This document shows positions 5,894 through 45,985 of a DNA stretch of 64,000 nucleotides, in pieces (position 1 is the first letter of the stretch; the number at the start of each line of letters is the position of its first letter). A program made the position numbers and the translations under genes. This DNA comes from Camelus ferus (taxonomy: Eukaryota). Below the pieces are notes generated by a model. That model had not been told where the DNA came from and searched no databases. It saw only the letters and a program-made list of their open reading frames with translations. The stretch spans positions 57,042,001 to 57,106,000 of the forward strand of contig NC_045696.1 of NCBI RefSeq assembly GCF_009834535.1, written 5' to 3'.

Positions 5894-6048
5894 TGAACCA
5901 TTTATAATATTTTCTGGTGGCTTGTCCTATGACAAAGCTTGCAGAAGACCAAGTTTAACCATCATGCATGGGAAGGCAATTACAGTGCTTGAAATGGATC
6001 ATCCTATTGTTGAATTTCTAACTTTATGTGAAACACCCTATCCAAATG
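5894..6048 (+). CDS. STXBP5L: STXBP5L (tomosyn-2) coding exon A, 155 nt (approx. human exon 11)
   Basis: tttgcag| acceptor, |gtaagt donor; encodes (S)EPFIIFSGGLSYDKACRRPSLTIMHGKAITVLEMDHPIVEFLTLCETPYPN(E), recognised as tomosyn-2. Confidence 0.97.
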
Positions 6049-6176
6049 GTAAGTAACTGAAATGAAACTAGTAAAGTTGAAAAATCATTTTAGAAATGAT
6101 AAGTTACTATCAAAATTAAGCTTAAATATTTTTAGTTTTGGCAGCTGACATCTACTGTGCTACAATACTGAGCTAC

Positions 6177-6515
6177 AGGTGCTGGAGCAGGTTGTGCAAC
6201 TGTACCTACTTGACAAACTGGAAGTAAGACAGATGTAGTGCAGCAGTGCTGGAGTTTCAGGTTCTAATAGCAGGTAAGTGCTTTAAACTTTGATAAGGAT
6301 GGTGGAAGCTGAGCTGGGAGGGTCCGATAGGGGTCCAGGGTGAAATTACTTGGGGAAACTGAGGTCTCCTAATAGCCTCTCCTAGACCAGCTTCACCCAT
6401 CCCACTCCTATGCCAATCAAAGTTAAAGCACTTACCTGATATCAGTGATCTGTAACTCTGGTGGTGCTGTATCTGGTTCACATCTGGCTTTGCTTCAGAT
6501 ACAACTGTAGCACCT
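6177..6515. repeat. Long imperfect inverted repeat, possibly an ancient palindromic MITE
   Basis: 6271-6294 pairs with 6416-6438 (23 bp, one bulge); 6297-6311 with 6388-6402 (13/15); weaker pairing out to AGGTGCT/AGCACCT at the ends. Confidence 0.85.
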
Positions 6516-6809
6516 CTGATTACTCTAGGATTGCTGATGTGTGGTTAGTGACTTATTTCAATTTTGAGAATAATTAGTCAGGAGGGCTTTTGGGAGGAGA
6601 GGTGCTTTTATATTTTTATAATCTGTAATATAAAGACTTTTTATAAACATAAAAACCAGTCTACTTATGTGCAAACTGTATAATGGAATCTAATGATAAA
6701 ATATTTTGAGATCTAAAAATGGAGAGGGGTGAAATATAAAAAGGGACATATGAGTTTGTGATTAAAAACATAGTTTGTATATGTATTACTACATTTTCAA
6801 GAGGGAATG

Positions 6810-7040
6810 TATAGATGTAGGGAAAAGGTCAATGGACTTGGAGAGAAAGTATTTGGGTTTATGATTTAGCTCAGCCATTTACTAGCTATGTGACTTTGGA
6901 CAAGTCACTTTATATTTATGGGTTTGATTTATCATTTGTAGAAAGAATATTATAATATTAACCCCACTATGATTATTGGAAGATCAAAGGGAATATATTT
7001 TGTAAACTATGAAGATATATAAATTATGAGTTTTATTATA
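6810..7040 (+). mobile_element. MIR SINE relic
   Basis: gctcagccatttactagctatgtgactttggacaagtcactt MIR core. Confidence 0.7.
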
Positions 7041-9914
7041 AATGTATTAATTTGTTTTAAATTCTTGAGTTTCATATTTAAAAGATGGAATAAAGGGATA
7101 TGAAATAATCAATGTGACATTTTATTCCCAGAGTTGTCAGGGACAGACAACTGTGTTATAAATTAATCAACAAATATTTATTGAATGCTTCTATGGCCTC
7201 AGTATGACAAGAACTTGTTGAAAATACGGATGAAGTATGAAACTGATCTCTGATGTCAAATCACATAAAATCTGGCCACATGAGGAAGATAATTAGGACT
7301 TAAATTAAAAAATATAGCACTTAATTAAGTGCTGAGTTATACGGGTCAGAGTTTAAATAATGTACTAATTTATAGGCTAGTTACATAGTCACTGAAATAT
7401 TCATGCAAAGCTTCATGGAAAAAGTAGGATTTAGATAGGCCCTGAAGAATGACTTGGGTCTTGAAAAGAATATTGAATAAAGGTTTTAGAAATTGTGAGA
7501 TTTTGCTAGAGTAAGATCAATTCAGAGAAAAACTGAAAGCCTTTTGGAGGTATTTGGAAATAGGGAACTACGGGGGAATTTTGAAGGAATATTAACTGAA
7601 AGAAAGCATTTTTTTTGGTAAAATTTGCCCAAAAGTAGTGTATGGGTTTGAAGAGAGAGATGCTGAAATTTAAACTTCAGATTCCAACTGGGAAGCTTTT
7701 GTGATAATGTACATTAAAATAGTCAAGATCTGAAACAGAGTGCTGCTTGTAGGGCTGGAAAGAGGAAAACTCACTGAATTTGGTCAACAATTAGATTAGG
7801 GAGTGACATGATAGATGAGAAATAATTTAAGAATAGTGATTTCATATGCAGTAAACAGTTTTTAGAAAGAGAAAAATAAATCTGATTATGAGTCAGTGGA
7901 GTTGTTTAGACAGCAGAAAAAGACCGGGAAGAGGTCTTTAATATTTATTTATGAATCATCAGAATATAGATGCTCTTTGGAGTTATGAAAATGAATGATA
8001 AAGGAACAATAGAAGAAAAAACAGAGAACCTAAAGCTGAACTTAGGAAAATGCATTCTATTAAAGACCCTCAAAAAAGAAGGTGTGCATGCCAGTAATAG
8101 AAACTGAAAATTTGTGGTTGCAAAGATCAAACACTATATGTATGTGTGCTTATAAATTTCTGCATATCAGTAGAGATGTTAGGATAATTCGTATAGTGTT
8201 AAACAAGTTATAAGTGTACTATAACCAAGTCTAATCACTTCCAAGCCACATGTATGTCTTTGCTTTCCAGAGAAGTGGTAATGAGGCTGGGACTTTTTAT
8301 TTGCCAAGAGCTAGGAGAAATAGTTTAACTTTACTCGGTAAAATATGAATGTATTTTATAAACTCTCTAATTAAGACAATAATACGTGAAAGTACCAGAA
8401 AAAAATCCCACAATACACAACAGTATATAATGGAAACTTTCTCACTGCCCTTCCTTACTAACTATAACTAAGTTTCTTATGTGCTCCCCAAGTAAGCCAT
8501 GCATATGCATATGTGTACTTATTTATGTATATATTCATCATCCTTTTTGTACAAATGACAGCATACTCTCTGTGCTGTTCTGTATCATACTTTTTTCACT
8601 TTACAGTGTACAGTATTTTGATTGATTCCATATTAGCAAATGCAGAACTTTAATCTCCTATATAGCCAGATAGTGATAAATGTTATGTATATGTTAAACA
8701 AACTAAATTTATTAATATTTTTATATTCCTGAATTATTTATGACACCTGACAATTAAGCCTGTTTCTCAAAGAACACAAATGCCTAATCCTCTTATCTCA
8801 GGGGGCATTCCCTGAGTAACTAATCAACTATACTCAGAATTTGTTAGTTTCACATCTAGATTTAATTGAATCTGGTCTTCTACAAGTGTCATAAATAATG
8901 CATTTCTCTTCAAAGAAGTAGTCGTTATGATAGAGCTTTTCACCTTGTTGGAGACTAGGGTTGAAAGGCTGAGCCTGCTCAAAAATAACCAATCTAATAA
9001 AGAAAGTAATACTATTGACATCTATTGAGTACCAACTATAAGCCAGGTTCTGCATTAAACATCTTTATATACATCTAATCTTCATAACAGTCTAATAAGG
9101 TAGTTATTTTGCCATTTCAATGGGTAAAGAAAATGAAAATCAAAGAATTTAGCTAATTAAGACCAAATTATTAATAAATAATAGACACAAATTGAACCTA
9201 ATGCTGACTCCAAAGGAAATCTTATTACTTAGTGGTTATCACAGTTCACAAGTGCTTCTACAAAGGTGAAACTTTTGCTACCAGTTTTTATTATTTGAAA
9301 AGAAACAATAATCTAAAACAGGTATAACTACCTAAAATAATAATTTTTATGATTTTTACTTATTCATGCCAATGTCTCAGCTTTTTTATGTTTGTAGCAA
9401 CTGCCTCCCAGCCAATGAGTTTCCTAAAGAGCGGTGAGAAAACAAAGAGGAAACTAGTATTATACGGAACCCCAGTGTTCTTCAAACTGAGAAACAGAAT
9501 AAACAAAAAAAAAACCCTGGGAGTATTGAAATAACCTTGAAAAACCTTAAAACAGCTCTAAGAGATAAGGGGAAAGGGGAGAAAGGCCTCAGTTTGAGTA
9601 AAGTTCAAGTAACAAATAGTGTAAGGATTGTATACTAACGTGTAGATATGCACCCAAACAAGGGCAGCCTCCTCAGTTTGGGGGGTTTGTGTTTGTGTTT
9701 GTTTTTTGTTTTTAATTTTTTTATCATAGCCTGTGACTTACATAAAAATAAATATGAATAGGTTCTACAGCTTCTCATGACTGGGAGTGCTGTGAAGGCA
9801 ATCTATTTCAGTTTCCTATCCAAGACTTGAATACTCTTGAATACAAAATTCCTGCCAAGTGATTATTGAGTTTAGGATTGGATACCTCTTAAACTAGCCA
9901 GTAGAAACTGCTGC

Positions 9915-10095
9915 TATAATGAAAATAGCATGGGTTAAATTTTCAGCTCTATAACTTACTAGCTTTGTAAACTTGTGCCGATCTCATAACCTCTTTGGAC
10001 CTCAGTTTTCTCTATGAAATGGAAAAATGATAGTACCTGCTCTAGCTACTGAGAATCAAATACCATGTATGTAAAATGCTTTTGTAAATACTTTT
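9915..10095 (+). mobile_element. MIR SINE relic
   Basis: acttactagctttgtaa...aacctctttggacctcagttttctc...aatgatagtacct. Confidence 0.65.
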
Positions 10096-11010
10096 TCCTT
10101 AAATTGAGCAAACACTGTAACTGTGGCTTTCCTTTGTTAGTCTTTTATTATAGATAGAAACAATGTCTTCCCTGAGCACTATAACTAAATTAGCACTTCC
10201 CCACCAACCACAAGTACATTTCTTATACTATTACCTTTGTTAATTTTTTTTACAGTTTACATTAGTTTCTGAGTTAATCTTACTTATTTACTTGTTCCTT
10301 GTTTTTATATCCCTAGAATATAGACCGAGAATAAAGATCTTGTCTATCTTATTCCCTGTTTAGCCTTTGTTCTTAGTTTCTGCACCATATTGAAGGAAGA
10401 AAGTAGGGCTGGAGAAAGGGAGAAAGGGAGAGTTGAATTTTAAGAACTTGAAAATGTTAGGCTATCCTGACTCTGCTTTTTTGAGATATATACTCTTGGG
10501 CACATAGTAGGCAGTCTGAGTACCGGTTAAATCACATTGAATTGAAAGTAAATTTTTTAGTATAAGTGTTGCACTCATAGGGAGGTGACTATGTGTCATA
10601 GCTGAGAGAAGCAGAACTATTTCCTTAGTATATCTCCTTGTAGTCATGAAATCAAATCTGAAATGGAAGTTATGGAAGACTAAGATAAATGTGAGATGGA
10701 GGTGACAGACCCTCTCTTTTCAAATAATCTACTATTATCACTACCTCACGATTATTGAGATATATTTAACTCTGTGCTATGCAACTTCTCATTTTGTCCT
10801 TGTTCTCTATAATGGTCTTAAACAGTGAGTTTGAGAAACACAACATATATTTTTTAAAAGTGGTCTTTGTTACTCCTTACTTTGGCTCATATTTTGATCT
10901 TCTCAAGTCATTTAAATAACATTTGTACAGGAGATAAAGGAAATGCCAGTTTGGTGATTTTATAAAATATGAAATCTGAAAATGTTTCCCTTTTTCCTTC
11001 CTACTTATAG

Positions 11011-11083
11011 AATTTCAAGAACCCTATGCCGTTGCAGTACTTCTGGAGAAAGATCTCATTGTAGTTGATCTGACACAAAGCAA
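11011..11083 (+). CDS. STXBP5L: STXBP5L coding exon B, 73 nt
   Basis: cttatag| ... |gtaagt; encodes (E)FQEPYAVAVLLEKDLIVVDLTQS(N); phases match neighbours. Confidence 0.97.
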
Positions 11084-11181
11084 GTAAGTTATCCATGTTC
11101 AGAGTAACACTATGTTTAAACTCTATTTATTGCAGTTAAAACATAGTAGGACATCATAGATAATTGGCATTATAATTCTTT

Positions 11182-11434
11182 TTTTTGAGATTTTTAAAAA
11201 ATTTTATTTTTTATTGAAGTGTAGTTGATTTACAATGTTAGTTTCAGGTATATAGCAAAGGCAATTCAGTTATACATATACACATATATTGTCAGATTAA
11301 TTTCCATTATAGCTTATTACAAGACATCAAATATAGTTCCCTGTGCTATACAGTAGGTCCTTGTTGTTTACCTATTTTATATATAGTAGTGTGTGTCTGT
11401 TAATCCCAAACTCCTAATTTATCCCTCCCCACTA
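11182..11434 (-). mobile_element. 5'-truncated cetartiodactyl-type L1 3' end with target-site duplication
   Basis: T-rich tail then ttattgaagtgtagttgatttacaatg...atagttccctgtgctatacagtagg; flanked by gcatta(t/g)aattcttt at 11167-11181 and 11435-11449. Confidence 0.9.
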
Positions 11435-14430
11435 GCATTAGAATTCTTTAGTTGGGAAATATTCTTTATGTGGAATATTGTTTTGGTAGAATTACAGAAG
11501 TGTAATTTGGCTCAATAATGAAAACTAAACTAAGAGAGGTTAGGGGACACTGAGAGAATTGTAAGATATTTTAAAGGCAACATCTAAAGTTTAAAAAGAT
11601 TCATTTGGAAATCCAGAACACATAAAATGGATCACCTTTCTACTATTTCCGTAAGCAAAAATAATTGTTATGAAAACTTGTAGAATGTACTATCTGGCCA
11701 TCTCCTAACTATTGACTAAAGGAAAATGGCACATAATAAAAGTATTATTGGACTACCGCAGCAGACAATATAGAAGAGCAGGATCTTGAGGGCAGAAAAG
11801 ATGGAGGACGTCTTTTACTTTCTTTCCTTTTTTATTATGTTGTTGGCAGTGGAAACAAATAGAAAATATTGTTGTTAGAGTAGTGCTCTCTACTAGTTTA
11901 CATGGACTATAAAGGTAGACTTTAAATTGATGAACATTGTCTTCCTGCTACACATTTTCATTATCAATGGTGATAGGCATGAAACTCTTTTTCCCTTATC
12001 CTATGCTCTACACCCAGTAATCTTTTTTTAGCCCTGTATATTTTTAGAGCTTTTGTACATTTGCTGTTTTCTGCATGGAATAATCTTCCCTCCCTTTTTC
12101 TCCTTATTAACATCTGTAAGAATCACAACTCACTTATTTCCTCATTTAAAAAAAAACTTTTATTATCTATATAATTTGGTCAAATATCCTATTAAGTGCT
12201 ACCTTAACTCCATGTTCCTCTCCTTCATTGACACATGAAATTTTCCATTTGTTATTGTTTTAAAGATTATCTCCCTACTTGACTGTAGGCCTCATGAAAG
12301 AGGAGCTTTGTCACCACAAAAAGTAGGTTCTCAATAAAGTTTTGTTGGGTGAAGTACAGTCTGAACTTTACTTTCCATGTAGTTTGTGAATGTAAGAGCC
12401 AAAGTTGGTCTTTGTGATAATTTACAGCATGTAATATTTCAATATTTGAAAAGGGAATAGTGTTGGGGCCATAATATCACCATAACTGAATTCTGCCTGA
12501 CTGCTCTATTTATCGCCAGCAAACTTGATTAAATTTTATGTACATGTGGATTTATGCCTCTTCCTCTAATTTCTAATATAGGTTTTATTAAAATGAACTC
12601 TTCTAATTTCATTGATACTACATTCTCCCTTCTGTGTCATATTTTTTGGTTCCTCATACCTTGTCTAATTGTCTAACATCCTCCAAGTCCTACTATATTT
12701 TAATACTCAAGTTCTTCAGTATACACATTTATTCTTTTTAAACTTTTTTATTGTGTTAATATATATGTAACATAAAAGCTACTATTTTGATACATTAATT
12801 CTTATGCTTTTTATTACTTTATATATAAGTATGTGAATTGACATTTTGTTTGCAGTTTTTATCTAACTTTTTGCCTTCTTCAGCACCATTTTTAAAATTA
12901 TGTGACATTCCCATTTCATTGCCTATTACAAATTTAATGTCAAAAACTGAATATGTTTTCCCTTCAAATAGTTACCTTTTAGCCATGTTTCATGTTAACA
13001 ATTAAATAGAAGCTTTGTATTTCCTTACTTCTTTTCTATTTAATCCTCTACATGGAAGCAAGCATTAGGGCTTACAGACTTTTCCTCTTCTTGGTTTCTT
13101 GGATTTTTATCTTTGTTTACATTTATACAAAAATCAGTTTACACTTCTACATATAAATTCCCATAATACATTTTTAGTTATTATTTCTTTCTTAAATACC
13201 TTTTTTGTACTCTTTGCCGATATAATAAAATAATTTTCCCCAAACATTTTCACAATATTGTTCACCTTCTCAGGAGTCTATCATTGTAAACTCTTGCTAT
13301 TATCAAATCCCAGGTTATAGATTTGATCTTTAAGGTGATGCATTTATTTTTCTTCTAATTCTTCAATCTCAGAAATGTTACTTTCTAATCTGAAACAGGG
13401 AATCTGTGATTCATCCAGTTTAACCTACTTGCTGTATAATAAACATAACTTTCTTCTTTCCACATAATTTTGCTCTCAATACTATTCTTATCTGGGAAAC
13501 CATTTCAGATTGGAGGGAAGAGAGCCCCTGTCAACACATGCACACACAAAAACAGACACCTCATACTCTCTCTGGAGTTTGAATTAAGTTTCTAATTTAG
13601 CTCCTATAACATGGGGGAAATTATTTTGAATATCCCTATGTCCCCCCTGCCGAAAGCATGTTGTATCAGAAGTAACATGATCACACAGATCTAGAATAGA
13701 TGCAGCATAGACTAATACTCAGTTCCCTCCGCTAGAGTGCCTGGTACCTCTAATATATAAGAAATGCAGAATATATTGTGGTTCAAAGAATTCTTAATTT
13801 GGTTCTATACTGATACCCCTTTTTGAAATGATAGTAGGCTTAAGAATATGAAATTTACTACACCCATAAGTCTGCATTCTCTATGTTCTCTAGTTTACAT
13901 AGGAAATAATATTAAACATCCATAATCACATACCTACATAGCACACACATCTTTCAATTACTCCTTATAAAAGAACAAAACCAAAATGTTTGCCTACATA
14001 TTACCTTCCTTGGGAAACGTAAAATTTACTAAGACATTTTAATACTTAGAAGTATATTATATAAATATTTAGATAAAATTGTACATAAATAAAGTACCTA
14101 GATGATACATTTTAATAAATTGACTTGCTGCATGTTTTCAGTTTAATGTAATTTAATCTACCCGTAGTAACAAAGTGATATCAGTGTGGAATTTTGGAAT
14201 TATGGAAAGAAAATGAATTTGTTCAACTAAAATTCTACAAGTATTCATATTACATTTTGTAGACAAATTTTTTTAAAGAATTCTTGTTCATGTGATCATT
14301 GTTTTATAAGGCTTAAAAATAATTCAGTGAAATGTATAATTAATATTTAGGAGATTTTAGGGTTTGTTTTATAAAAGTTATTTCATTTTTATATATTACA
14401 AAATGACACTAATGTATTATCTTTCTATAG

Positions 14431-14578
14431 CTTTCCAATCTTTGAAAATCCATATCCCATGGACATTCATGAATCACCAGTTACATGTACAGCATACTTT
14501 GCTGATTGCCCACCAGATTTAATTCTAGTGCTCTACTCTATAGGAGTCAAGCATAAAAAACAAGGATACAGTAATAAG
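14431..14578 (+). CDS. STXBP5L: STXBP5L coding exon C, 148 nt
   Basis: tctatag| ... |gtaaga; encodes (N)FPIFENPYPMDIHESPVTCTAYFADCPPDLILVLYSIGVKHKKQGYSNK. Confidence 0.97.
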
Positions 14579-15489
14579 GTAAGAGCAACAATTAGAAATG
14601 TTACCTTGTATTCATATTTATATCATATGATCATGGTTTTTCTGCTATTTTATTTTCTGACTTTCCATAGAAGACTTGAGCTAAATTCTTTTGAAGTCAT
14701 AAGCTGACATCTGTAAAACACACAATTTCTGAAGTTCTAATTCCTAAATTCTACATAGCTTTAAGTCTACAAGAATATGTTTCTTATATAATAAGTATAT
14801 AATTATAGACTAAGATATACTTACCTATCATGTATATTTATATACTAAGTATATATTTAAGCTAACATATGTTTGAATCATAAGATGTTACTTTAAATTA
14901 TTTTAGATGAAGAAGAGTGTTTTAGGAAATTCAAAAGTCAACTCTCTAGTTAATTCTTATCAATCAGTGGTTAATAATACATAATTATCAAAAGTCATTT
15001 GATAACCTTTTAGAATTCCATTTTGTTATTTTTAACTACAGGATTCAAATATTTGCAATTGTAAAAGACCTCTCCCTCCCCATTACAGTTTCTATTATTT
15101 GCACAGGACTGTTGGGATGGGCAATTCCAGGGGCACAATTTACATAGTTTTGTGTTAAATGGCACCACAATAGTTTGATAGTACATAGACTATGTGGAAG
15201 ATGTAGCAATACTGTATTTGTATGAGTAAAGACACTTCTTTGCATTTTTATAAGAATGATAATATTTGTTAAAATCTATAATTTTAAAGGATATAGAATT
15301 GCGTATTAGGAATTGCTTGTTCGATAAAAGAATTAAAAGATAGCTACATGCTTATTTCTTTATTACTTAACAGCTATTTCTTTTTAAGTGAAACTTTTAC
15401 CATTACTCAAAAATTTTTTATTTTAAATTTCTAAGTTATTTAAATTAAAAAAATTAAACCTATAAATTGTTCTTCGATGATCTGTTTAG

Positions 15490-15557
15490 GAGTGGCCAAT
15501 CAGTGGAGGAACCTGGAACCTTGGAACACAAACATATCCAGAAATTATCATTACTGG
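15490..15557 (+). CDS. STXBP5L: STXBP5L coding exon D, 68 nt
   Basis: tgtttag| ... |gtaagt; encodes EWPISGGTWNLGTQTYPEIIIT(G). Confidence 0.96.
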
Positions 15558-16059
15558 GTAAGTGGGATGTGATTTGTGAGTTTATCAATTTATCAACAAA
15601 AATATTTCACTGAATTTTCACACTTTCCCATAATTGTGCTCTAGGAATGCTGACAGTTTAAATAAAAATATAAGACATAACTTCTATCCAAAGGTTATAA
15701 CCTTTATAGAAGATACAATCAAACTATTGAAAACATAGACATATAACAGAAATTAAAAAGTGTAGATTATAAGAGCAGAAGAAAGTCAAAGAAAGAAAAA
15801 TCAAGAGAGATTAGTCAAGGAAGAATTCCTATAGAAGTAATAAATTGTTAACCTTAGAAAGGCCCTACCAATGGCTCTTGATTCTGTCCAAATCTAGGAA
15901 TCAGTGCTCTATATCCCCATCAGGTGGTTATTTGAAGTGTGCTTCAAAACTTATAGCACCAGAAAAGTTACTTCCAATAGCAACCCAGTTCATGCTCTAA
16001 TGTTAGGAATGAAAATAGAAACATAGCAACAGCTAAAAATGAGATTTAAAAGATAGTAA

Positions 16060-17790
16060 GGGGTTTTGCTTATCGGATATGGAAAAGATGTACTTTTCCC
16101 TATTCTTTCCACTAAGTACAACTGAAAACCCTGTATATCATATACTAAACAAACACATTATGACTGGAAAAAATGGAGAGAATTCAGACTGGCTAGGGCC
16201 CCAAAGACCTAAGGAATGATGATGAGTTTCCTGGGTTTTCTTTTTGCTTCATATATACCAGAATTGGAGTTGAAGAAGCTAGCAACCTGGAACTGGCAAC
16301 AGGCACAAGCCTAAAAAGCCCAACAAAAGCTGGCTTTCTCTAGGAAAAAGATGAGGAAAGATTATTTTCCAAGACAGAAAATAATCTTTCTACTTTAGCT
16401 AACCACCAAAGAAAAGAACTGTGGCCCGACCCCAACCCACTTCATCAAAGGTTGAGTGAGGAGCCTGGACTTTTATCCTCATCAAGCCATAGCAAAGTGC
16501 CTCAACTCACCCACGAGGGGAGTCGGTCTCTGGCACTAAGCAAAGGCTGAGTAGGGAGCTAGGACTTTTAACCCTACTGGGTGGTAATGAAACTCATTAC
16601 CTATGGTGACAGAAATCATGTGAGGAGCCAGAATTCCCCCACTGCCCAGCACTAATGAGGAACCGCACATCCTCCCTATTTTGTGTCAATGGAAGTCCAG
16701 TGAGGAAGGAAGGAGGAAAAAGAACAGGGCTGAAAAATTCATAAGAGAATAATTACTGAAAACTTCCCAAATTTGGCAAAAGGCATGAACCTAGATATTG
16801 CAGAAGCTAAGTGAACCACAACACATTCACAACAAGAAACATCATACTCAAACTTCTGAATATTAAACACTAAGGAAAAAAATTATGAAAATAGCAAAAG
16901 AGAAATGATACCTTACCAAGGGGTAAAACCAGCTGGAATGATGGCAGATATCTCATTGGGAACCATGGTGGCCAGAAGGAAACCTGAATTTTTTTCAAGT
17001 GCTGAAAGAAAAGAACTGACAAGCTAGAATCCTATACCCAGCAAGAATATCAAAAATTAAGCAGAAATTAATACATTCTCAGATGAAGGAAACTAAGAAT
17101 TTGTCAACATCAGACCTACCCTAAAAGAGTGGGTAAAGGAAGCTCTCTGAACTGAAAGCAAATGATAAAAGAAAGAACCTCGGAATATCAGGAAGAACAC
17201 AGTAAGCTAAAATATGGGTAAATACAGTAGGCTTTCTTTCTCTTGAGTTTTTAAAATTAGATTTGATGATTGAAGGAAATTTTAGTTATATCATCTGATG
17301 TGGTTCTACATATGTATAAAGGAAATATTTAAGGCAATTATAAATGGGAGAGGGTAAACTGATATAAAGGAAGATAAGATTTTTTTACTTCCCTCAAAAT
17401 AATACTATGATAACACCAGTAGACTGAGACAAGTTTTGAATATACAGTGCAATACTTAAAGCAATCCTGTATTTAAAAAAAAAAACTGATGCCAAGAGAT
17501 ACACTCAAAAACATTATTGACACATAAACATGGATGTACTGAAATAATTTAATTAACCCATAATTGGCAAAAAAAATAAGTGACAAAAAATGGAAAAAGT
17601 GTCCAAAAAAGAGGGAAAAAGGACAGGCTTAATGTAATCATTGAAATGTTAAGGCTTAAATGTAAATAGTCTAAATGCACCAATTGGCAGAGTGGATTAA
17701 AATTATGACCCAACTGTATGCCATCAACAGTACACTCACTTCAAATATAACAGTATAGTCAGGTTAAGAAAAAAAAAGACAGGAAAATGT
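16060..17790 (+). mobile_element. Old L1: 5' UTR, ORF1 remnant and start of ORF2
   Basis: ORF1-like gaaaacttcccaaatttggcaaaag; ORF2-start-like aatgtaaatagtctaaatgcaccaatt; heavily decayed. Confidence 0.7.
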
Positions 17791-17802
17791 AATAGAATCA
17801 AT

Positions 17803-20800
17803 GGAGAGTGACATCAGCAAGACGTCAGAATAAGTAGCCCCAGACCTTGTTCTCCCACAGACACACTAATGTAACAACAATATATGATCCAAACAACGTT
17901 ATGAAAACTCCATAAACCAGTTAGGAAATCATAGTACCTCAGGGAAGCTGAAAGCCAAGAATAGCCATACTGAAATGGGTAAAAACAGCCATTTCAACTC
18001 TGTCAGCTCCTCCCCCAAATTGGCACAACTCATATTCAGGGGGAATCTTCTCTCATGAGAAACTAGTTTTTATCTCACCTGAGTCAGAGTACTGGTGGGA
18101 ACTAGATGCCTGGGGGCTGCAGAGAACAAGAGAGCTCAATGGCTTTTTGAACTGACAAGAAACTTGCAGTACTATAGACATACAATAGAATGAGCAAGAA
18201 AATGTAAGCTCATGAAAAAGAGAACCAGCAAATCTCTCTTATTGGGAAATTACACATACAATCCCTGAGAAGGTGCATCCCCATTGAAGGTTTGAGAAGC
18301 CCCTAGGATTTCTGCTTAAGGTCTTCCCCTGTGTAAAGCTAGTTCATAGCAGGTGGCTGTATTTTCAAATGCTAAATTCACAACAAAAAATAATGAGGCA
18401 CACAAAGAAACAGGCAAGTGTGGCCCAATCAAAGGAATAAGATAAACCTCTAGAAACTGACCCTAAAGAATTGGATATCTGTGAATTACCTGACAAACAA
18501 TTCAAAATAGTTAACTTAAAAAAGCTTAATGTATAACAAGAGAACACAGACTGTTCAATGTATAAGAGACACAGACAGTTATACTAAATCTGGAAAATGA
18601 TGCATGAATGAAATGAGAATATCTACAAAGACATAGAAACTATTAACAAGAATCAGAAATAAATTATTAAGCAGAAGAATAAGATTTTACTAGTAGGGAT
18701 CAGCAGTAGACAAGAACCAGCAAACTTGAAGATAGGTAATATGAAATTACCAAGATAGAGGAATAAAATAAAAAAGGATGAAAAAGAGAGAAGAATGCCC
18801 AAAGTACTTATGGGATACCATCAAGCATACCAACATAGGCATTATGGAAGTGCCAAAAAAAGAGAGAGAGTAGGGCAGAAAACTTATTTGAAGAAATGTT
18901 TGCTGAAACCTTCTCAAATCTGAGGAAGTAAATGGACATTCATATCCATTGGATATGTATCAGAATACTTCAGTGAGGATGAACCCAAAGAGGCTCACAC
19001 TGAGACATATTATAATCAAATTGTCAAAGACAAGGAAACAATCTTGAAAGCAGCAACAGAAAAGCTACTTGTTACATAAGATTATCATTGGATTTCTCAG
19101 CAGAAACATTACAGGCTAGAAGAGAAGTAGGATAATATATTTAAAGTACATAAAGAAAAAAAAAAGCCAGCCATGAATACTATACCTGGAAAACTATACT
19201 TCAAAAATGAAGGAAAAATAAAGATCTTCCAAGATAAACAAAAACTGAGACCATTTATTACAACTACATCTGCCTCACAAGAATTGCTAAAGGGAGTCCT
19301 TTGAGTTGAAACAAATGAATACTAGAAACAAATGACAACAAATTACAACAAATGAAACAAATGACAAGAAAATGAAAGCATATGAAAATATAAAGCTCTC
19401 TGATAAAAGTAAATACATAGACAAAAACAGAATCCTGTAACAGTATAGTGCTGGTGCATGAAATACTTTAAATTCAGATGTAGAATTGAAAAGATAAAGG
19501 CTATAACTTAACTGTGTTAATGGTTATAAAATATTAAAAGATATAATTTACAACAGCAGCAACATAAGATAAAGGGGGAGATAAAGGAGTAGGATTTTTG
19601 TATGTAATTGAAGTTGTTATCACTTTAAAGTAGATTGGTATAACTGTTTTATATATTACACATTTTAACTACAAAGAAAATACCTATAGAATATGAACAA
19701 AAGAAAGTAAGAAAGAAATCAAAGCATTTCACTACAAAAAAAGTCAATGAAACAACAAGGCATCAAGAGAGGGAAAAAGGAACAAAATAAATAAAAGGTA
19801 GGAAACAGTTCTTAAATGGCAATGGTAAGTCCTTATATATCAGTAATTTCTTTAAATATAAATGAATTACACTCCCAAATCAAAATACATAGAGTGGAAG
19901 AATGGATCCACTATATGCTGTCTACATGAGACTCACTTTAGATATAAGGATGTATGTAGCCTGAAAATGAAAGGATAGATAAAGATATTCCATGCAGATG
20001 CTAACCAAAAAGAGATCTGGGGTGACCATACTTATACAAAATAGACTTTAAGCCAAAAACTGTCATAAGAGACAAAGAAGGACATTATATAATGATAAAA
20101 GTCAATTCACCAGAAAGAAATTTTAAATACATATGCACCTAACAACAGAGCCATCAAATATATAAATCAGACGTTGACAGAATCAAAGGGAGAAATAGGC
20201 AGTAAAGCAAAAATAGTAGGAGCTTCAAATACCTCACTTTTAATGAATAGATCTAATAAACAAAATCACACAGAGAGAAGTTCAATAAGGAAACAGGATT
20301 CAAACAACACTATAGAACTATTAGACCTAACAGACATATACAGAACACTCTACCCAACAACAACATAATACACATTCTTCTCAAGTACACGTGAAACATT
20401 CTCCAGGATAAATCACATGTTAGGCCATAAAACAAGTCTTAAAATTTTTAAGGAGATTGAAATTGTAGCAAGCATCTTTTACAACCATGTTGAAATGAAA
20501 CTAGGAATGAATAGCAAAAGGAAGACTGGAAAATCCACAAATCTGTGGAAATTAGGCAGTACCCTTTTGAACAACCAGTGGATTAAAGAAGAAATCACAA
20601 GGAAGTTGGAAAGTATCTTGAGACAAATGATAATGAAAATACAACATACCAAACTTAGGGGATGTAACACAAACACTACTAAGAAGTTTACAAGTAAAAC
20701 TCTAAGAAGTTTATAGTAGTAAATGTCAACAATAAAAGAAGGATCTCAAATCAATACCTCAAGGGATTAGAAAAAGAAGAAAAAACTAAACCCAAAGTTA

Positions 20801-22661
20801 GCAGGAGGAAAGAAATAACAGAGCTTAGAACAGAAATAAAACAGAATAGAAAAATATTAAAAAGTTTTTTTTAAAGATCAACAAAATTGACAAACTCTTA
20901 GCTAGACTAAGAAAAAAAGAACTCAACAAGTATCAGAAATGAAAGAGGAGACATTACAATTGATGCTACAGAAATAAATGTTCATAAGAGACTACTCTGA
21001 ACAATTATATGCCAAGAAACTGGATAACTTGAAATAAATGGATAAACCTACTTAGACTGAATCATGAAGAAATAAAAAATATCTGAACAGACCTATAGTC
21101 AGTAAAAAGATTTAACAAATAATTTAAAAACTCCCAAAAAAGATAAGCCCAAGAGTAGAGGACTTCACTGAAGAATTCTACCTAACATTTAAAGAATTAA
21201 CCTTAATTCTTTTTAAACTATTCCCAAAAATTGAGTGAACAATTCCAGATTCTTTCTATGAGACCAGCATTATTCTAATGCCACAATCAGACAAAGATAC
21301 TACCAGAAAAAATTACAGAGCAATATCCCCAATGACTATCATTGCAAAAATCTTCAACAAAATACTGGTAAACCAAATTCTACTATACATTAAAAGGATA
21401 ATACATTATGACCAAGTGAGTTGCATCCTTAGAATATAAGGATGGTCAACATATGAAAATCAATCAGTGTGATAAACCACATTAACAGAATGAAGGACAA
21501 AAGCCACATGAGCATCTCAGATGGTACAGAAAAAGCTTTTGGCAAATTCAGTATTTTTTTCATGATAACATTCAACAAGCTAGTAATAGAAGGAAATTAC
21601 TACAACATAATAAAGTGTCATATATGAAAAGCACAGAGCTGACATAATACTCAATGGTGAAAAGCTGAAAGTTTCCCTTCTAAGATAAGAAACAAAAGAT
21701 GGATGCCCACTCTCACAACTTATATTCAGCATAATACTGGAAGACCTAGCTAGAGAAATAAGCAAAAATAAATAAATAAATAAAAGACATCCAAATCAGA
21801 ATAGAAGAATTAAAATTATCTCTGTAGATGACATGATCTTGTATGTAGAAAAGTCATAAGTTTCCACACAAACACAAAAGTTAGAACTAATGAGAAATTC
21901 AGCAAATTTGCAGGATATAAAAATGAACATACAAAGTCAGTTCTATTTCTGTTCACTAACAATGAACAATCTGAAAGGAAATTAATAAAACAATCCTGTT
22001 TACAATAGCATCAAAAGGAATAAAATATTTAGGAATAAACATAATCAAGGAAGCAAACCTCTTTAATGATGAAAACTATAAAACACTGTTAAAGAAATTA
22101 AGGAAAACACAAATAAATGGAAAGATATCACATGTTCATGGATCAGAAAACTTAATATTAAAATGTCCATACTACCTAAAGCAATCTACAGACTCAATGC
22201 AAATCCTTATCAAAATCTCAATGAAATTTTTGGCAGAAGAAGAAAAAAAAATCTTAAAATTAATACAGGATCTCAAAGGACTTCAAATATTCAAAATAAT
22301 CCTGGGAAAGAAAGATAGAGCTAGATCCCTCACAATTCCTGATTTCAAAACATGATACAAAGCTAATCAAGACATATTAAAAAGTAACCAAAATGGTATG
22401 GTACTGGCATAAAGACAGAGATAAAGACCAATGGAACAGAGTAAATAAGTTGTCATAAATAAATTGTCACTGATATAGTCAAAATTTTCATAAAGGTACC
22501 AAGTCTATACAATGGGGAAAGGATAGCCTCTTCAACAACTAATGCTGGGAACATAGTATTTGCACATATAAAATAATGAAATAGGACCCTTACCTTATAC
22601 CATGTACAAAATCAACTGAAAATGGAAAGACCTAAATGTATGACCTAAAACTATAAAACTC
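17803..22661 (+). mobile_element. Decayed L1 with 5' UTR, ORF1 and most of ORF2; 3' end missing
   Basis: 5' motif gacatcagcaagacgtcagaataag; ORF 20417-20716 (MLGHKTSLKIFKEIEIV...) resembles ORF2p endonuclease; RT-region DNA around 21300-21950; many stops and frameshifts. Confidence 0.9.
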
Positions 22662-23031
22662 AACAGTTTAAGGATCAATTTTGTATTATCTATGATAACC
22701 ACTAAAATAATAGTATAAGAATGTAATACTCAAAAACTAGTAAAATAGAATATTTTAATGTAATTAATCCTTAAAAGGACAGAAAGGGTAAAGAAAGACA
22801 GAATAGATTAGATGAATAGAATATAACTGCGAGGTTGGTAGATTTAAATACATATGTATCAGTAATTACAGTAAGTATAATTTGACTGAATTCTCCAATG
22901 ATAAGGCAATGACTGTCAGTAGAGATAGAAAAATAAAACCAAACTCTATGCTGCTTTGAAAGTAAATATATGAAAAATTGTAACATGTAAACAATTTAAA
23001 ATTTTGATATAGCTCTAATTACATCAGTAAA

Positions 23032-23604
23032 GTAGTTTTCAATTGTTGCATTAAAAATCACCACAAACTTAGCAACTTAAAACCCGTTTATTAACTCACA
23101 GCTCTATAGGTCAGGCACTGGATGGTTGAGATGCTCAATGTACCACAAAACTGAAATCAAACAGTCAGCCAGGCTGAGTTGTCATCTGGAGGCTCTGAGG
23201 GAAAATCTGCTTTCAAATTCATTCTTTTTGATGGAAGAATTTAGTTCCTTGTGGTTGTAGGACTGAGCTGCCAATTTCCTTATTAGTTTTTAGGTGGGCC
23301 ATCTTAGCTACCACAGGCTGCCTACATTCCATGCCATGTAACCCCTTCTTCCTTGAAGCCAGTAATAATGCATCAAGTACTGCTCATGCTTCAAATTTCA
23401 AATGTTTTTCCTCTTTGACCTCTAGATCTATATTTATAGGTTTCATAGGATCAGGTCAAGTTCACCCGAATTGTACCCCTTTCTTAAAATCAACATAATG
23501 TAACAATTGTGTGAGTGATATATTCTCTATTATATTCACAGTCCCAAAGAATATACAGGATTATCCCACGAGGCGGGAATCCTGGGGAAATTCTGCCTAC
23601 CACA
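23032..23604 (-). mobile_element. MLT1-type MaLR solo LTR inserted in an old L1
   Basis: caccacaaacttagcaacttaaaac near the left end, aattctgcctaccaca at the right end; GTAAA at 23027-23031 and 23605-23609 fits a 5-bp TSD. Confidence 0.8.
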
Positions 23605-23609
23605 GTAAA

Positions 23610-25808
23610 CTTTAAAGCAAGAAGCATTATCAAAGGCAAAAAGAACTATTTCAAAATAATGAAAGGATGAATCCATAAGGATTTTGAGTTCAGTACTTCA
23701 AAATATATAAAAAGATAAGACAGTTCTGCAATAACTGGGAGAAAATATTACAAACCTCTCTCTGTAACAGATTTAAAATCAGAGGAAAACAATTCTTAAC
23801 AATAAAGAAAGTTTTGAATAGCAGGATTAATAAGTCTGACTTAACTGACATATTTAGAACTCTACAACTCAAGAATTTCCATTCTTTTTAAGTGCACATG
23901 GGACACACAAAATTGGCCACATGAAGGACCATAATATAAGTACCAGTAAATATCAAAGGATTGTAATCATATTATATAAGATGTTCTCTGACCACAGGGG
24001 AATTAAATTAGAAACCAATGACAAAAATATGTAAAGAAAATTTACAATTTTTCAAAATTAAGTAATCTATTCCCACTAACTTAGTGCTTAATGAAGAAAT
24101 CACAATAGAAAAATTTTAAATATCACAAACAGAAAGATAGTGAAAATATAATGTATCATAAAATGTGGATACATCTAAATCTATGTTTAGAGGTAAACTT
24201 ATACCCATGTTATATGCTTATATAAATTAATATAAACTCTGACCCATGTATGTTAATAAGAAGACTCACACTTAATGATCTTATTATATATCTTAAGAAG
24301 TTAAAAATAGCAAGGTTATTCCCAAAAAAGTAAAAAAGAAAATAATAATGCTAAAACAAAATTTAGTGAAATAGAAAGTGTACAATAGCAAAGATTGATA
24401 AAACTAAAGTTGGTTTATGGAAATAAATATTAAAGCTGCTGAAGGTGTGCAGGATTGTCAAGAAAGTAGAAGAAACACACCGGAACAATCACAGATATGT
24501 GGAAATTTAACAACACACTTTTAATCAATGGACCAAATAAGAAATCACAAGGGAAATTAGAAAATATTTTGAGATTAGTAAAAATAAAAATAAAATTAAT
24601 GGTAAGGAGATAGAGGGAAAACAGCACTCAGAGGAAAATTTGTATCTGTAATTATCTACATTTAAGGAAGAAGAAATTTCAATAACCTATCTTTACACCT
24701 TAAGGAACTAGAAAAAAAACAAATGCTAACAGATGTAAACAGTAGCAAAAATTTGAGCAGAGATAAACCAGAGGATAGAAAAACAATAAAGGAACTCAGT
24801 GATACCAAAAATTGGTTCTTTGAAAAAATCAATAGAATTGACAAACCTTTAGTTAGAGTCACTCAGGAAAAAGGAAAGAAGACTCAATTATTAAAATCAG
24901 AATGAGAAATGAATGGAATACTATCAATCTTACAAAAGTAAAAAGGATTATAAGAGAATACTGTGAACAGTTGTATGCCAACAAAGTAAATAACCTAAAT
25001 GAAATATAAAAATTCAGAGATGTAAGTGAACTATCAAAACTGACTCAAGAAGAAATAGATAATCCAAACAGACATAACAAGTGAGGAGATTAAATCAGTA
25101 ATTAAAACCTTTCATCAAAGAAAAGGTTTGGCTCTTTCTTTGGACCAGTTGGCTTCGTGATGAATTCTATCAATCATTTAAAAAAGTAACAACAAATGCT
25201 TTTCAACTTTTCCATAAAATGGAGGGGGGAATGTCCTAACTAATTCTCTGAGACATTATCCTAATACAAAACTAGAGAAAGATATTGTATGAAAAGACAA
25301 TTGCAACAGTATCCCTTATAAATATAGATTCAAGTATATTAACCAAAATACAGCAAACTGAATCTAGTAACATATAAAAAAGATTATAAACCATGGTCAA
25401 GTGGGGTTTATGGTAGGAATACAAGAGTGTTTCAACATATAAAAATCAATTTAATACCCACAAAAAACACATAGTCATCTCATGAATAAAAAAGCATTTG
25501 ATAAAATTGAACACCTCTTTCCTGATTTAAAACCACAACAACAGCAACATTCAGAAAACTAGGAGCAGAATGGAACTACCTTAACTTGAAGGGCGTTTTG
25601 CTAAACTCATAGTAACGTCATATTCAATGGTAAAAGACTAAAAGCTTTCCCTATGAGATCAGGAACAAGACAGGAATTTCTGCTTTTGCTACTTTTGTTT
25701 CATATTGAACTGGAAATTCTAGCTAGAGGAGTGAGGCAAGAAAAATAAATGAAAGGCATCCACAATAGAAAGGAAGAAGTAAAACTATCTCTATTTGCAG
25801 ATAACATG

Positions 25809-25867
<59 letters not shown>

Positions 25868-27228
25868 TTCTGTATACTAACAATAAACAATCTGCAAAGG
25901 AAATAAAGCAGTTTTATTAGCATCAAAAAATAAAATACTTATAAATAAATTTAACCAGAGAGATGAAAGGCTAGAAAGTACAAAACTTTGCTAAAAGAAA
26001 TTAAATAATACACAAATAAATGGAATCATCTCATGCTTATAAATTGGAAGACTTAGTATTGTTAAAATGACAATTTCTCAAAGTGGTGTACAGATTCACT
26101 ACAATTTCTGTCAAAATCCCAAGGACCTTTTTGCAGAAATGAAGAAAGTTTCTCGTGGATTAGAAAAAATACTAAGATATTTTGTGAAGCCAAAGTAAGA
26201 TCAGATAAAGTAAGGCATACAAAGAAATAAGAAAATATGGCCTATTCAAAGGGAATAAACCAATGGAAAATATCTCAGAACAAGACCAAATGGCACATCT
26301 ACTAGACAAAAGCTTTAAAACAGCTGTCTTAAAGATGCTTAAGAGCTAAAGGAAGATATGGAGAAAGTCAAGAAAAAGATGTATGAACAAAATGGAAATA
26401 ATCAAAAACAGAAAACTGAAAAATAAGCCAAAAAGAAATTCTGTAGCTAAAATGTACAGTAACTGAAATGCATAATTCACTGCAGAAATCCAAAGGCAGA
26501 TATGAACAGGCAGAAGAAAGAATCAATGAACTTGAAGACAGGATAATAGAAAGTATTGAGTCTAAGGAACAGAAAGAAAAAGAAGAGTGGTAAACAGAAT
26601 GTAAGGGACTTCTGGATGCCATCAAACAAACTAAAATATGCATTGTGGCAGTTCCAAAAGAAGGAGAGAGAGAGAGAAGGGGGCTGAGAGATTATCTGAA
26701 GAAATAAAGCCCCAAACTTCCTGAGTTTAATAAGACATGAATCCAAGAAGTTCAATGAATCCCAAGTATAATGAACTCAAAGATATACACACTGAGATTT
26801 ACTACAATAAAATTGTCAAAAGGCAAAGCAAAACAGAGAATCATGAAAGCAGCAGGAGAGGAGTGACTCATCACATGCAAGGAATCAATAATATTACCAG
26901 AATATTTCTCTTTAGAAACTTTAGAAGCCAGAAGGCAATAGGCTGATATATTCAAAGAGCTAAAAGAAAAACTGTCAACTAATAACCTTATATCCAGCAA
27001 AACTGTGCTTCAAAGTTAGGGAGAAATTAAGACATTCCTAGATAAACAAAAGCTGAGGGAATGCATTGCCACTGGTCCTCCTCTGCAAAAATGCTGCAGG
27101 TTGAAATGAAAGTATACTAGACAGTAATTTAAAGCCATATGAAGAAATTAATATCTCAGGAAAAAAATTCTGATAAAGTGGACTTTCTGGACAAAACATT
27201 CCAAGATAAAGTAGATCACTATCATATT
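23610..27228 (+). mobile_element. Stack of older L1 fragments (ORF2 pieces, then an ORF1 piece at ~26190-27170)
   Basis: ORF 24723-24905 (KNWFFEKINRIDKPLVR) is ORF2p-like; agaagaaagaatcaatgaacttgaagacagg is ORF1-like. Internal boundaries approximate. Confidence 0.8.
25814..25867. repeat. Compound microsatellite (AT)15(GT)12
   Basis: Read directly. Confidence 0.95.
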
Positions 27229-27244
27229 AAAAGTTTCAGTTTTC

Positions 27245-28263
27245 TGCACAGCAAAGGAAACCATAAGCAAAACAAAATGACAACCTATGGAATGAGAGAA
27301 AATAGTTGCAAAAGATGAAACTGACAAGGGCTTGATTTCCAGAATATATAAACAGCTCATATGACCTAATAAGAAAAAAACAATGGGCAGAAGACCTAAA
27401 CAAGCAATTCTCCAGTGAAGAAATACAAATGATCAGTGGGCACATGAAAAAATGCTCAGTATCACTAATTATCAGGGAAATGCAAATCAAAACTACAATG
27501 AGGTATCACCTCACACCAGTCAGAATGGCCATCATTCAAAAGTCCACAAATGATAAATGCTGGAGAGGGTGTGGAGAATCCAGTTTGGTGTAGCCATTAT
27601 GGAAAACAGGGAGATTCCTCAAAAGACTGAAAATGGACTTACCATATGACCCAGAAGTCCCACTCCTATGTGTATATCCAGAGGGAACCCTTATTCAAAA
27701 AGACCTGTACCTCAACATTCATAGCAGCATTATTTACAGTAGCCAAGACATGAAAACAACCTAAATGTCCATCAACAGATGACTGGATAAAGAAGTGTGG
27801 TATAGTTATACAATGGAATACTACTCAGCCATAAAAATGATAAAATAATGCATTTGTAGCAACATGGATGGCCCTGGAGAATGTCATTCTAAGCGAAGTG
27901 AGCCAGAAAGAGAAAGAAAAATACCATATGACATCACTCATATGTGGAATCTAAAAAAAAAAAAAAAAGACAAATGAACTTACATATAAAACAGAAACTG
28001 ACTAATAGACATAGAATATATGCTTTTGGTTGCCAGGGGGGAGAGGGGTGGGAAGGAATAAACTGGCAGCTTGAGACTGGTATGTGTAAAATTGATAAAC
28101 AAGTTTCTACTGTATAGCACAGGGAAATACATTCAATATCGTGTAATATCTCATGGTGGAAAAGGATAAGAAAATGAATATATGTATATTCATGTATGAC
28201 TGAAGAATTGTCCTGTACACCAGAAATTGACACAACATTGTAAACTGACGATACGTCAATAAA
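27245..28263 (+). mobile_element. Young 5'-truncated L1 (ORF2 C-terminus and 3' UTR) with perfect 16-bp TSD
   Basis: aaaagtttcagttttc at 27229-27244 and 28264-28279, preceded by TT (TT/AAAA endonuclease site); AATAAA at the 3' end. Confidence 0.93.
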
Positions 28264-29359
28264 AAAAGTTTCAGTTTTCAAAGAAGATGTAAAAAATTAA
28301 ATTTGTGTGTATTCAGTAATATGACCTCAAAATTTATAAAGCAAAAATTGAGACAAAAAATTGACAAAAATTGTAGTTAGACATCTCACTGATAACAAAA
28401 AAATCAGTAAGAACATAGAATATTTGGAGAATATGATAAACTTGATCTATATATTTGAAAAACATTGCCATAAATAAATGAAAAGGCAAGAAATAAATTG
28501 GGATATTTGTAACATACATAACCACTGAAATTTTGTTTCCAGAATGTCTAAATGATTTCAAATCAGTAAGAAAAAGTCAATCAACCCCATTGAAAAATAG
28601 CCAAAAATACTTAAATAGACATTTCATAGGAGAGAAAACTTGTATGGCTTGACCTCATTAATAATTTAAAATATTAGTAACTAGGAAAATGCAGAGTAAA
28701 ACCATAATGAGATACCATTTTACATTCAAAACAAATTGGCAGAAAATTTAGAAGTTTGTCAGTTACAAGTATTGAAAAGAATGCAGCTCAATTATAATTC
28801 TGTATCACAAATGAGAGTATAAAAATGTAAATTTCTAAAGTTTGGCATTATCTTGTAAATTTAAACAGTTTCATATCCTAAGACCCACCAATTTCCCTCT
28901 TATTACATAAATAGCAAAAGATTTATACAAGATACTTTATAGCTGCATTCTTTGTAAGAGCAAAAAAAAAAAAAAAAAAAAAGACACAGACAGAATCCAG
29001 TTGCCCAATCATTGAATAAGATATATATTGTGGTATAATCGCAGTACAGACTACTATATATTATACAGATCTGTGAAAATGAGTAACATACAGCTGCAAA
29101 CAACAATTAATTTTATAAATCTAATAATAAATGAAAAAGCAAGTTCTTCAAATTTATATACATTATACCACTATTATAGATTTTTAAAAATCAGAAGTAA
29201 GCAATTGTTGTTTATACACATAATGTGATAATATTATATATTATATGATAAATATATAATATATATATATTAAAGAAAAACAAGAGCTGATGAAAATTTA
29301 GAATACTGGTTAGTTCTGGGGACAAAGAAGGCAGGGTGATGGAATCAGGAAGAGAACTG

Positions 29360-29885
29360 TATATATATTCCACACAATGGTATATTATTCATCCATAAAG
29401 AGAATGAAATCTTGCCTTTTGTGACAATATGGATAGACCTTAAGGGCATTATGCTAAGTGAAACAAGTCAGACAGAGAAAGACAAACACTACAAGATTTC
29501 AATTATATGTGAAATCTGAAAGAAAAAAAAAAAAAAAGCTCATATATACAAATAACAGATTGGTGGTTTCCAGAGGCAGAGGGCGGGGGTTTGATGAAAT
29601 GTGTGAAGGGAGTCAAAATGTAAAAACTTACAGTTTTAAGTCAGGGGGATATAATGTGTAAAGGATAGTGATTATAGTTGATAAGACTGTATTGCATATT
29701 TGAAAGTTGCTAAAAGAGTAAATCTTTAAACGACTCATCACAGAAAAAAAGTCTGTTAATTACATATGGTGATGGATATTAACAAGATTTATTATGGTGG
29801 TCATTTCACAATATATACAAATCATTATGTTGTATACCTGAAGCTAATATAATGTATGACAATTATACCTCTATAAAATAAAAAA
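29360..29885 (+). mobile_element. L1 3' end fragment
   Basis: aatgaaatcttgccttttgtgacaatatggatagacc...gttgtatacctgaagctaatata...aataaaaaag. Confidence 0.8.
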
Positions 29886-45970: not shown

Positions 45971-45985
45971 AAACCTTGAAAAGGG

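Follow-up and report, generated by a model that had tools for sequence, protein, structure and literature searches.

Poison exons whose inclusion is controlled by RNA structure have been described in BRD2 and BRD3, where the pairing regions sit in the introns on either side of the exon and slower elongation promotes skipping (PMC10789245, accessible part). For the gene considered here, STXBP5L, which encodes tomosyn-2, a human event is catalogued in supplementary file 5 of Lim et al. 2020 (PMC7347940, accessible part) as STXBP5L chr3:121223244-121223371:+ EI_NMD, with a length of 128 nt (hg38). The accessible part of this file lists two STXBP5L events, an A3 event and the exon inclusion, and holds no alternative-5'-site NMD row for the gene. 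According to the same accessible part, the events are annotated in GENCODE 28 or RefSeq, were obtained via SUPPA2 on hg38 and were subject to a stated filter that asks for three or more junction read pairs and an inclusion of 3% or higher in samples of liver, kidney, CNS or eye; the NMD label of the human row comes from annotation. A second catalogue (PMC10123112, hg19) lists only the other STXBP5L event, and the cassette coordinates are absent from its supplement. STXBP5L was not found in the accessible text and supplement of PMC11632617 or in the accessible supplements of PMC8052449 and PMC11387194. The gene has been linked to a neurodegenerative phenotype, the link being uncertain (PMC8799713, accessible part).

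Here, we analysed a stretch of 64,000 nucleotides of Camelus ferus DNA (called the window for simplicity) that carries exons of STXBP5L. On balance, and with some reserve, we favour the reading that positions 6136-6273 are a poison cassette exon that probably predates the split of primates and hoofed mammals, and that an RNA fold-back over its donor keeps this exon mostly skipped. The following features are used throughout:

5894-6048, plus strand: exon A of STXBP5L (LLGL domain, Pfam PF08366), 155 nt, with the donor ATG|GTAAGT and its GT at 6049
6049-6135, plus strand: short AT-rich intron, 87 nt, ending in TTTTTAG at 6135, with a weak pyrimidine tract (0.5) and a TAA at 6054-6056
6136-6273, plus strand: putative poison cassette exon, 138 nt, indicated by the junction peptide P0001 and the human table
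6225-6227, plus strand: TAA stop in the cassette frame, 46 nt ahead of the cassette end and 119 nt ahead of the end of exon B
6176-6507, no strand assigned: GC-rich imperfect palindrome with the ends TA|CAG ... CTG|TA, a candidate old non-autonomous DNA transposon
6271-6294, plus strand: left core of the stem, 24 nt, containing the cassette donor CAG|GTAAGT with its GT at 6274
6416-6438, plus strand: right core of the stem, pairing over the donor; 6430-6438 are the donor-binding letters of U1
11011-11083, plus strand: exon B of STXBP5L, 73 nt, the 3' partner in the normal as well as the cassette route

Nine exon matches were mapped across the 64-kb window by tblastn. The translation of exon A is 100% identical to many named STXBP5L proteins, the nearest named proteins being those of even-toed ungulates and whales (359/365 residues), and exons A and B carry the LLGL domain. 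The length of exon A equals that of human hg19 chr3:120941850-120942004. A circRNA table (PMC6528256) gives four consecutive human STXBP5L exons of 155, 73, 148 and 68 nt, the lengths of exons A to D of the window. The intron between exons A and B spans about 5 kb. Among the best 120 of 2638 protein matches, 117 join exon A to exon B, two read into the intron after exon A and one, P0001, deviates by its splice. The human equivalents of exons A-D (window 5894-15557) also lie inside a brain circular RNA, hg19 chr3:120871324|120959354, which two programs detected in 589 and 588 samples, respectively (PMC6528256 supplement). Included in this circular RNA, the cassette could escape decay; its coordinates did not turn up in the accessible supplements of PMC8355340.

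The cassette has its own acceptor (AG 6134-6135) and its own donor within a coding-region intron. Its upstream junction is seen in P0001, in which the upstream exons are already joined to exon A and twelve residues unlike exon B follow. This tail agrees with the reading frame after AG 6135 at 9 of 12 residues, as compared to 3/12 for the best of the other 349 AGs of the intron and 5/12 for the best AG elsewhere (4197 AGs in the window). Since exon A is left precisely at its last base, with the codon phase intact, we regard this as a splice junction. Other species were viewed via chance antisense open reading frames, namely P0121, P0122, P0163 (a cluster of three) and P0164. The tail of P0001 with its stop is compatible at the DNA level with the antisense peptide of the P0163 cluster, which was the case for none of 300 shuffles, and is not compatible with P0121, P0122 or the window. 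The three residue differences and the early stop are thus accounted for, because the orthologous DNA behind P0163 fits both. At least one residue sets P0001 apart from all alignable primate, pig, peccary, ruminant and whale proteins compared, and P0001 equals the proteins of the horse family, cat, bear, seal, marmot, elephant and sloth (three rows could not be aligned); these differences together with the P0163 compatibility indicate that it stems from a lineage other than human and that of the window. P0001 shows the upstream junction only and is the one such case among the best 120 of 2638 matches, and the cassette tail was found in none of 120 longer proteins (the best 120 of 283).

The cassette stop lies more than about 50 nt upstream of a later junction, with 119 nt to the end of exon B and further exons following. 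The cassette lengths deduced for the window (138 nt), P0122 (119 nt), P0163 (139 nt) and the human record (128 nt) are not kept modulo 3, which fits a non-coding exon. A second AG at 6143-6144, 9 nt past the cassette acceptor and with a pyrimidine fraction of 0.6, would give a cassette of 129 nt in the same frame. We consider it very likely that the donor at 6274 closes a conserved poison cassette. In Camelus ferus, 6136-6273 is most likely such an exon, its inclusion being deduced from other lineages: the upstream junction from one non-primate product and the human event by coordinates, from which we infer the use in Camelus ferus.

To place the human event relative to the window, we used the offset between the hg19 and hg38 builds, which is 281,153 at both ends of the other STXBP5L event. 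By coordinates alone, with the offset extrapolated from these two points about 270-310 kb away, the human cassette starts 86 nt after the 155-nt exon, while the acceptor in the window lies 87 nt after exon A. The human donor is found 214 nt after the exon versus 225 nt in the window, i.e. 11 nt nearer, a shift that is unremarkable because the cassette length varies between 119 and 139 nt among orthologues; the window has a weak GT at offset 212. Judged by gene, position and length, the human EI_NMD event is very probably the orthologue of 6136-6273. Should the human exon end at this same donor, the insertion would be older than the split of primates and hoofed mammals.

The fold of the region 6150-6540 bears out an earlier note on this DNA, which had described an imperfect inverted repeat at this place: the region forms one long imperfect hairpin of -156.9 kcal/mol (z = -5.23), an energy matched by 0 of 100 shuffles. 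The GC content of 6177-6515 is 47% versus 25-36% in the flanks. The two core pieces are those given in the earlier note, 6416-6438 being the reverse complement of 6271-6294 save for one extra A on the left, and the pair probabilities reach 0.98-1.0 across 6271-6284. The U1 5' letters are likewise present as described (ACTTACCTG at 6430-6438), and their likeness to U1 follows from palindromy, as had been pointed out; CAGGTAAGT is found at a single plus-strand site in the window. The claim that pairing is tightest over the donor also holds, with 23/24 matches there and an arm-to-arm identity of about 64% over 173 columns. Permutation of the columns yielded P = 0.007 for a run of this type anywhere and P = 0.0006 for a run covering the donor; under simulated uniform decay P ranged from 0.007 to 0.17, depending on the chosen rate. 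The base directly ahead of the donor, 6270, is G in the window, T in three orthologues and C in one. A T at this position lengthens the stem by one pair; since 6270 varies among orthologues, the exon-side edge of the stem appears unconstrained.

Fold-backs were scanned over the whole window in 400-nt tiles with 100-nt steps (99th percentile of the score about 29). The locus scored 49 and one other hairpin near 52.7 kb scored 52. The latter is a TA-flanked palindromic hairpin at 52690-52900 with terminal inverted repeats of about 20 nt, which we take to be a Tigger-type MITE and which was used as an internal control. It is also unevenly paired (21/24 at best, 58% overall). Because of its similar score, fold-backs as such are ordinary in the window, and because this MITE-like control is uneven as well, tight local pairing alone proves nothing. 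Rfam families (U1 copy, microRNA, snoRNA) gave no match at the gathering score in the 64-kb window.

Donors were scored with a rough position matrix of base frequencies. The cassette donor CAG|GTAAGT reached 8.85 versus 6.55 for the real donor ATG|GTAAGT, in line with the order of strength given in the earlier note, and it is the sole donor in the intron between exons A and B that reaches the score of the real one; the literature searched yielded no printed MaxEnt score for either donor. Further plus-strand donors of the GGTAAG type are present at 3371, 19825 and 39762; they close no exon found by tblastn, have no strong hairpin and show opening costs of 1.8-5.6 kcal/mol. A recursive splice site consists of YAG|GT preceded by a pyrimidine tract. 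The CAG at 6271-6273 was considered as such a site and rejected, as its pyrimidine fraction is 0.45, with another AG immediately upstream, versus 0.8 and 0.9 for real acceptors.

The cost of opening a donor was computed for the 11-base footprint of U1 with energies that apply to naked RNA. Freeing the donor at 6274 in the full hairpin costs 26.2 kcal/mol (about 26), which falls to 4.8 kcal/mol when the right core is held unpaired; the real donor costs 2-3 kcal/mol in the same folds. The duplex of U1 with the donor is worth about -13.2 kcal/mol. Since opening at about 26 kcal/mol exceeds the roughly 13 kcal/mol gained from U1, the stem is predicted to act as a lock, in agreement with the earlier claim that it buries a strong donor leading to a premature stop. 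The cassette acceptor costs 5.8 kcal/mol to open, similar to the 4.6 kcal/mol of a real acceptor. In a growing transcript the donor cost stays at 4-6 kcal/mol until 6425 and then rises to 12 kcal/mol at 6432 and 19 kcal/mol at 6438. Because the cost climbs once the right arm is made, the donor would be open for about 150 nt of transcription and locked afterwards. At usual polymerase speeds, about 150 nt of transcription take a few seconds.

The effect of A-to-I editing was addressed with an inosine model, which replaced a treatment of edits as A-to-G that had changed the cost by less than 1 kcal/mol. A single edit lowers the opening cost of 26.5 kcal/mol by 1.6-3.7 kcal/mol, and one or two edits leave 19-25 kcal/mol, with 19.2 kcal/mol for two edits on the right arm. 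Five edits covering the donor and the facing bases leave 11.9 kcal/mol, three of the five altering the donor itself, and editing of all core adenosines leaves 9.2 kcal/mol. Since single edits move the opening cost so little, editing could matter only if dense. Of the earlier proposal, the hiding of the donor by the stem holds; the ADAR switch is weak.

For conservation, the antisense peptides served as the view of other species. P0122 and P0163 extend into exon A and represent the orthologous site, and P0121 and P0164 are taken as orthologous from 88-89% identity. P0165 and P0166, near-copies of P0163, were left out of the counts, and the alignment starts at residue 8 of P0121 and at residue 2 of P0122 and P0163. 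Two further peptide hits, P0123 and P0124, are unrelated repeat proteins with no mapping to the window and were dropped. On the left side, changed codons amount to 22/56 in the proximal intron (counted from P0122 and P0163), 17/70 in the outer left arm, 1/32 in the left core and 5/52 in the inner left part; the loop has 8/56, the inner right part 13/47, the right core 0/24 and the outer right part 2/24. The 22/56 changed codons of the proximal intron indicate that P0122 and P0163 are not near-identical relatives. The lone left-core codon change sits at 6295, just outside the core, so that the left core shows no visible change in all four orthologues; the right core shows none in the three orthologues covering it.

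At the peptide level, where silent positions such as 6272, 6434 and 6437 are invisible, events collated by hand on an unknown tree numbered 24 in 6260-6451, or 20 without likely changes in the lineage of the window, and none of them fell into the 47 core bases. With weighting for visibility, GC and CpG, 3.9-5.4 core events are expected (P0 = 0.002-0.013), and without the nine donor letters P0 is 0.015-0.034. Neither the right core alone (P0 = 0.09-0.13) nor the donor letters alone, which are unchanged in 4/4 orthologues where visible (P0 about 0.3), reach significance. Changes are less frequent at paired than at unpaired sites (P = 0.005), also outside the core (P = 0.04). No compensatory pairs were seen in the four antisense peptide orthologues; in P0122, two paired positions outside the core changed on both sides and both lost pairing. 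The earlier note had asked for a check of core conservation and compensatory changes. The core looks constrained, with 0 core events versus 20-24 nearby; compensatory pairs and significance of the right core by itself did not emerge. We consider the data suggestive of selection on the stem, not strong. Gene conversion between the arms should homogenise the arms, not hold their sequence constant across species.

These data are consistent with a scheme in which exon A would by default be spliced to exon B. On an occasional route, exon A would be joined to AG 6135 across the 87-nt intron and the cassette would be left via CAG|GT at 6274. The included exon would introduce its stop and should trigger nonsense-mediated decay, as expected from the junction rule and in keeping with the NMD label of the human event. 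After the right arm 6416-6438 has been transcribed, the donor would, according to the computed energies, be locked in a duplex that U1 cannot outcompete, and inclusion would need the arrival of U1 within the about 150 nt between donor and right arm, or unwinding, or heavy editing. In terms of this model, the hairpin is most likely a kinetically gated lock holding inclusion low, and it probably limits the amount of message destroyed. That the stem is a selected repressor of the cassette we regard as reasonably probable.

The palindrome plausibly originates from a transposon. Its ends, TA|CAG at 6176 and CTG|TA at 6507, have no counterpart elsewhere within the scanned ranges; similar ends are present at the hairpin near 52.7 kb. 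The end-to-end match is short, similarity continues beyond the TA, and no duplication of 7-10 nt was found. No other copies of the palindrome were found in the window, and gapped core patterns returned 15 metagenome and 9 viral loci, all of them (15/15 and 9/9) chance hits with no likeness beyond the pattern. Peptide searches yielded four close copies, 79-90% identical, two of which were shown to adjoin exon A. All these copy searches (window, metagenome, viral, peptide) are insensitive to old copies. We describe the palindrome as MITE-like, without assigning it as a MITE member. It may have arrived as a GC-rich DNA-transposon derivative that supplied the donor together with its complement, and the acceptor of the cassette may be host sequence 40 nt upstream of the palindrome. 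In the same window, A-skewed dispersed repeat fragments that are 63-86% alike, presumably L1, lie at 11173-11430, 16000-30000, 43300-46000 and 55300-58750, and the closest repeat pair in the self-comparison of the window consists of two 77-nt copies (40881-40957 and 43036-43111, 92% identical).

The cassette could be real and still be tolerated noise, an old self-masking palindrome that leaks a few percent without any regulation, the stem at most protecting normal splicing. Self-masking is automatic in a palindrome, the lock is so strong that single edits barely shift its opening cost, the window contains another hairpin that scores similarly and has no known role, and the exon appears in one protein record among the matches listed and in only one of the searched catalogues. 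A merely harmful donor should decay, yet its visible letters are unchanged in all four orthologues (a weak argument by itself, with P0 about 0.3), and the acceptor is used in two lineages; we consider this explanation rather unlikely. Further removed is a stem that is a neutral relic with no effect on splicing, the cassette being run by RNA-binding proteins and the conservation being due to chance and the low mutability of AT-rich sequence. The exposure of the donor for about 150 nt of transcription, the missing significance of the right core alone and the lack of a compensatory change fit such a relic, but the invariance of the core survives weighting for GC and CpG (P0 = 0.013, and 0.034 without the donor) and paired sites outside the core change less too, which makes it very unlikely. 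The related suggestion in the earlier note that this may be only a decayed MITE retains its transposon part as plausible, while the "only" has become less likely given the use of the acceptor and the invariance of the core.

The earlier note had itself assumed another product, in which exon A is lengthened as far as the donor at 6274 and takes in the TAA at 6054-6056, with ADAR opening the stem; exon A would then measure 380 nt and 6274 would be a latent 5' splice site. This TAA is indeed in frame with exon A, and 6274 is placed as the definition of a latent site requires, less than 1000 nt downstream with an in-frame stop (PMC3510495, accessible part); the distance from the stop to the new junction would be 217 nt, and five edits bring the opening cost to 11.9 kcal/mol, below the U1 duplex energy. 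However, both P0001 and the human table favour the cassette route, in which the TAA is removed with the short intron, and the missing alternative-5'-site row for STXBP5L in the accessible part of PMC7347940 speaks against the extension as well. The unnamed read-through peptide P0003 has no stop at the codon corresponding to 6054-6056, one or two edits leave 19-25 kcal/mol, and latent sites are common, with 46,279 of them within 1000 nt in 26,229 human introns (PMC3510495, accessible part). The extended exon A is therefore probably the wrong product, and we give this alternative the least credence, judging it highly unlikely.

A poison cassette under a self-masking hairpin, which we prefer, would supply a concrete mechanism for an NMD exon that has so far been just a catalogue row. 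It would also offer two handles. An agent that blocks the right arm is expected to increase inclusion and reduce tomosyn-2; one that blocks the cassette is expected to increase tomosyn-2 slightly. A bolder version, in which a transposon delivered the donor together with its U1-mimicking complement and early placental mammals co-opted the pair as an elongation timer, seems improbable to us. If it were true, polymerase speed, helicases or hyper-editing would set the loss of tomosyn-2 message and hence the brake on synaptic vesicle release, and a slower polymerase would give more inclusion, opposite in sign to BRD2/BRD3. As an insertion in either orientation leaves the sense strand with a donor that masks itself, further family members would then be a genome-wide source of such exons. 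The testable question is whether a repeat-derived palindrome can govern its own exonisation through competition with U1 while it is being transcribed.

Compared with known systems, the exon is already catalogued, and the hairpin over its donor has an unusual geometry. The motifs of the stem core were not found in any paper, and no description of such a hairpin was found in the accessible literature on STXBP5L splicing, NMD, poison exons or editing, a body of text from which subscription journals and large external tables are mostly absent. The TA-flanked CAG ends and a GC content unlike that of the flanks give the palindrome a likeness to MITEs and to elements we take to be of the Tigger type. 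The MITEs Made1, MER53 and MER91C are similar in that they are imperfect palindromes of a few hundred bases that form long hairpins (PMC3742188, accessible part). Unlike these, the STXBP5L palindrome is best paired in the middle of the arms and not at the ends, and no second copy was found among the sequences searched.

The human STXBP5L EI_NMD event (PMC7347940, accessible part) agrees with the cassette of the window in gene, in its position 86 versus 87 nt after the exon, in its similar length and in its NMD label upon inclusion; its row consists of coordinates only and gives no structure, tissue, level or mechanism. TDP-43-dependent cryptic splicing has been described in the same gene, but according to the accessible part of PMC12424808 it concerns a shift of a 5' splice site in the 5' UTR and not this exon. 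With latent 5' splice sites (PMC3510495, accessible part) the donor at 6274 shares the consensus sequence, a distance of less than 1000 nt from the real donor and an in-frame stop before it; latent sites extend the upstream exon, whereas 6274 appears to close a separate cassette and to be sequestered by pairing. The poison exons of BRD2 and BRD3 resemble the STXBP5L cassette in that an RNA duplex in the intron reduces poison-exon inclusion and blocking the duplex should raise it, which for STXBP5L is a computed prediction. In STXBP5L, however, the duplex covers the donor itself, its partner lies about 150 nt downstream and the left arm is largely inside the cassette; the duplex is part of one long palindrome of probable transposon origin, and slower elongation should give more inclusion. 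The exon-looping geometry of BRD2/BRD3 is thus not found in STXBP5L, where the same logic appears in a different geometry.
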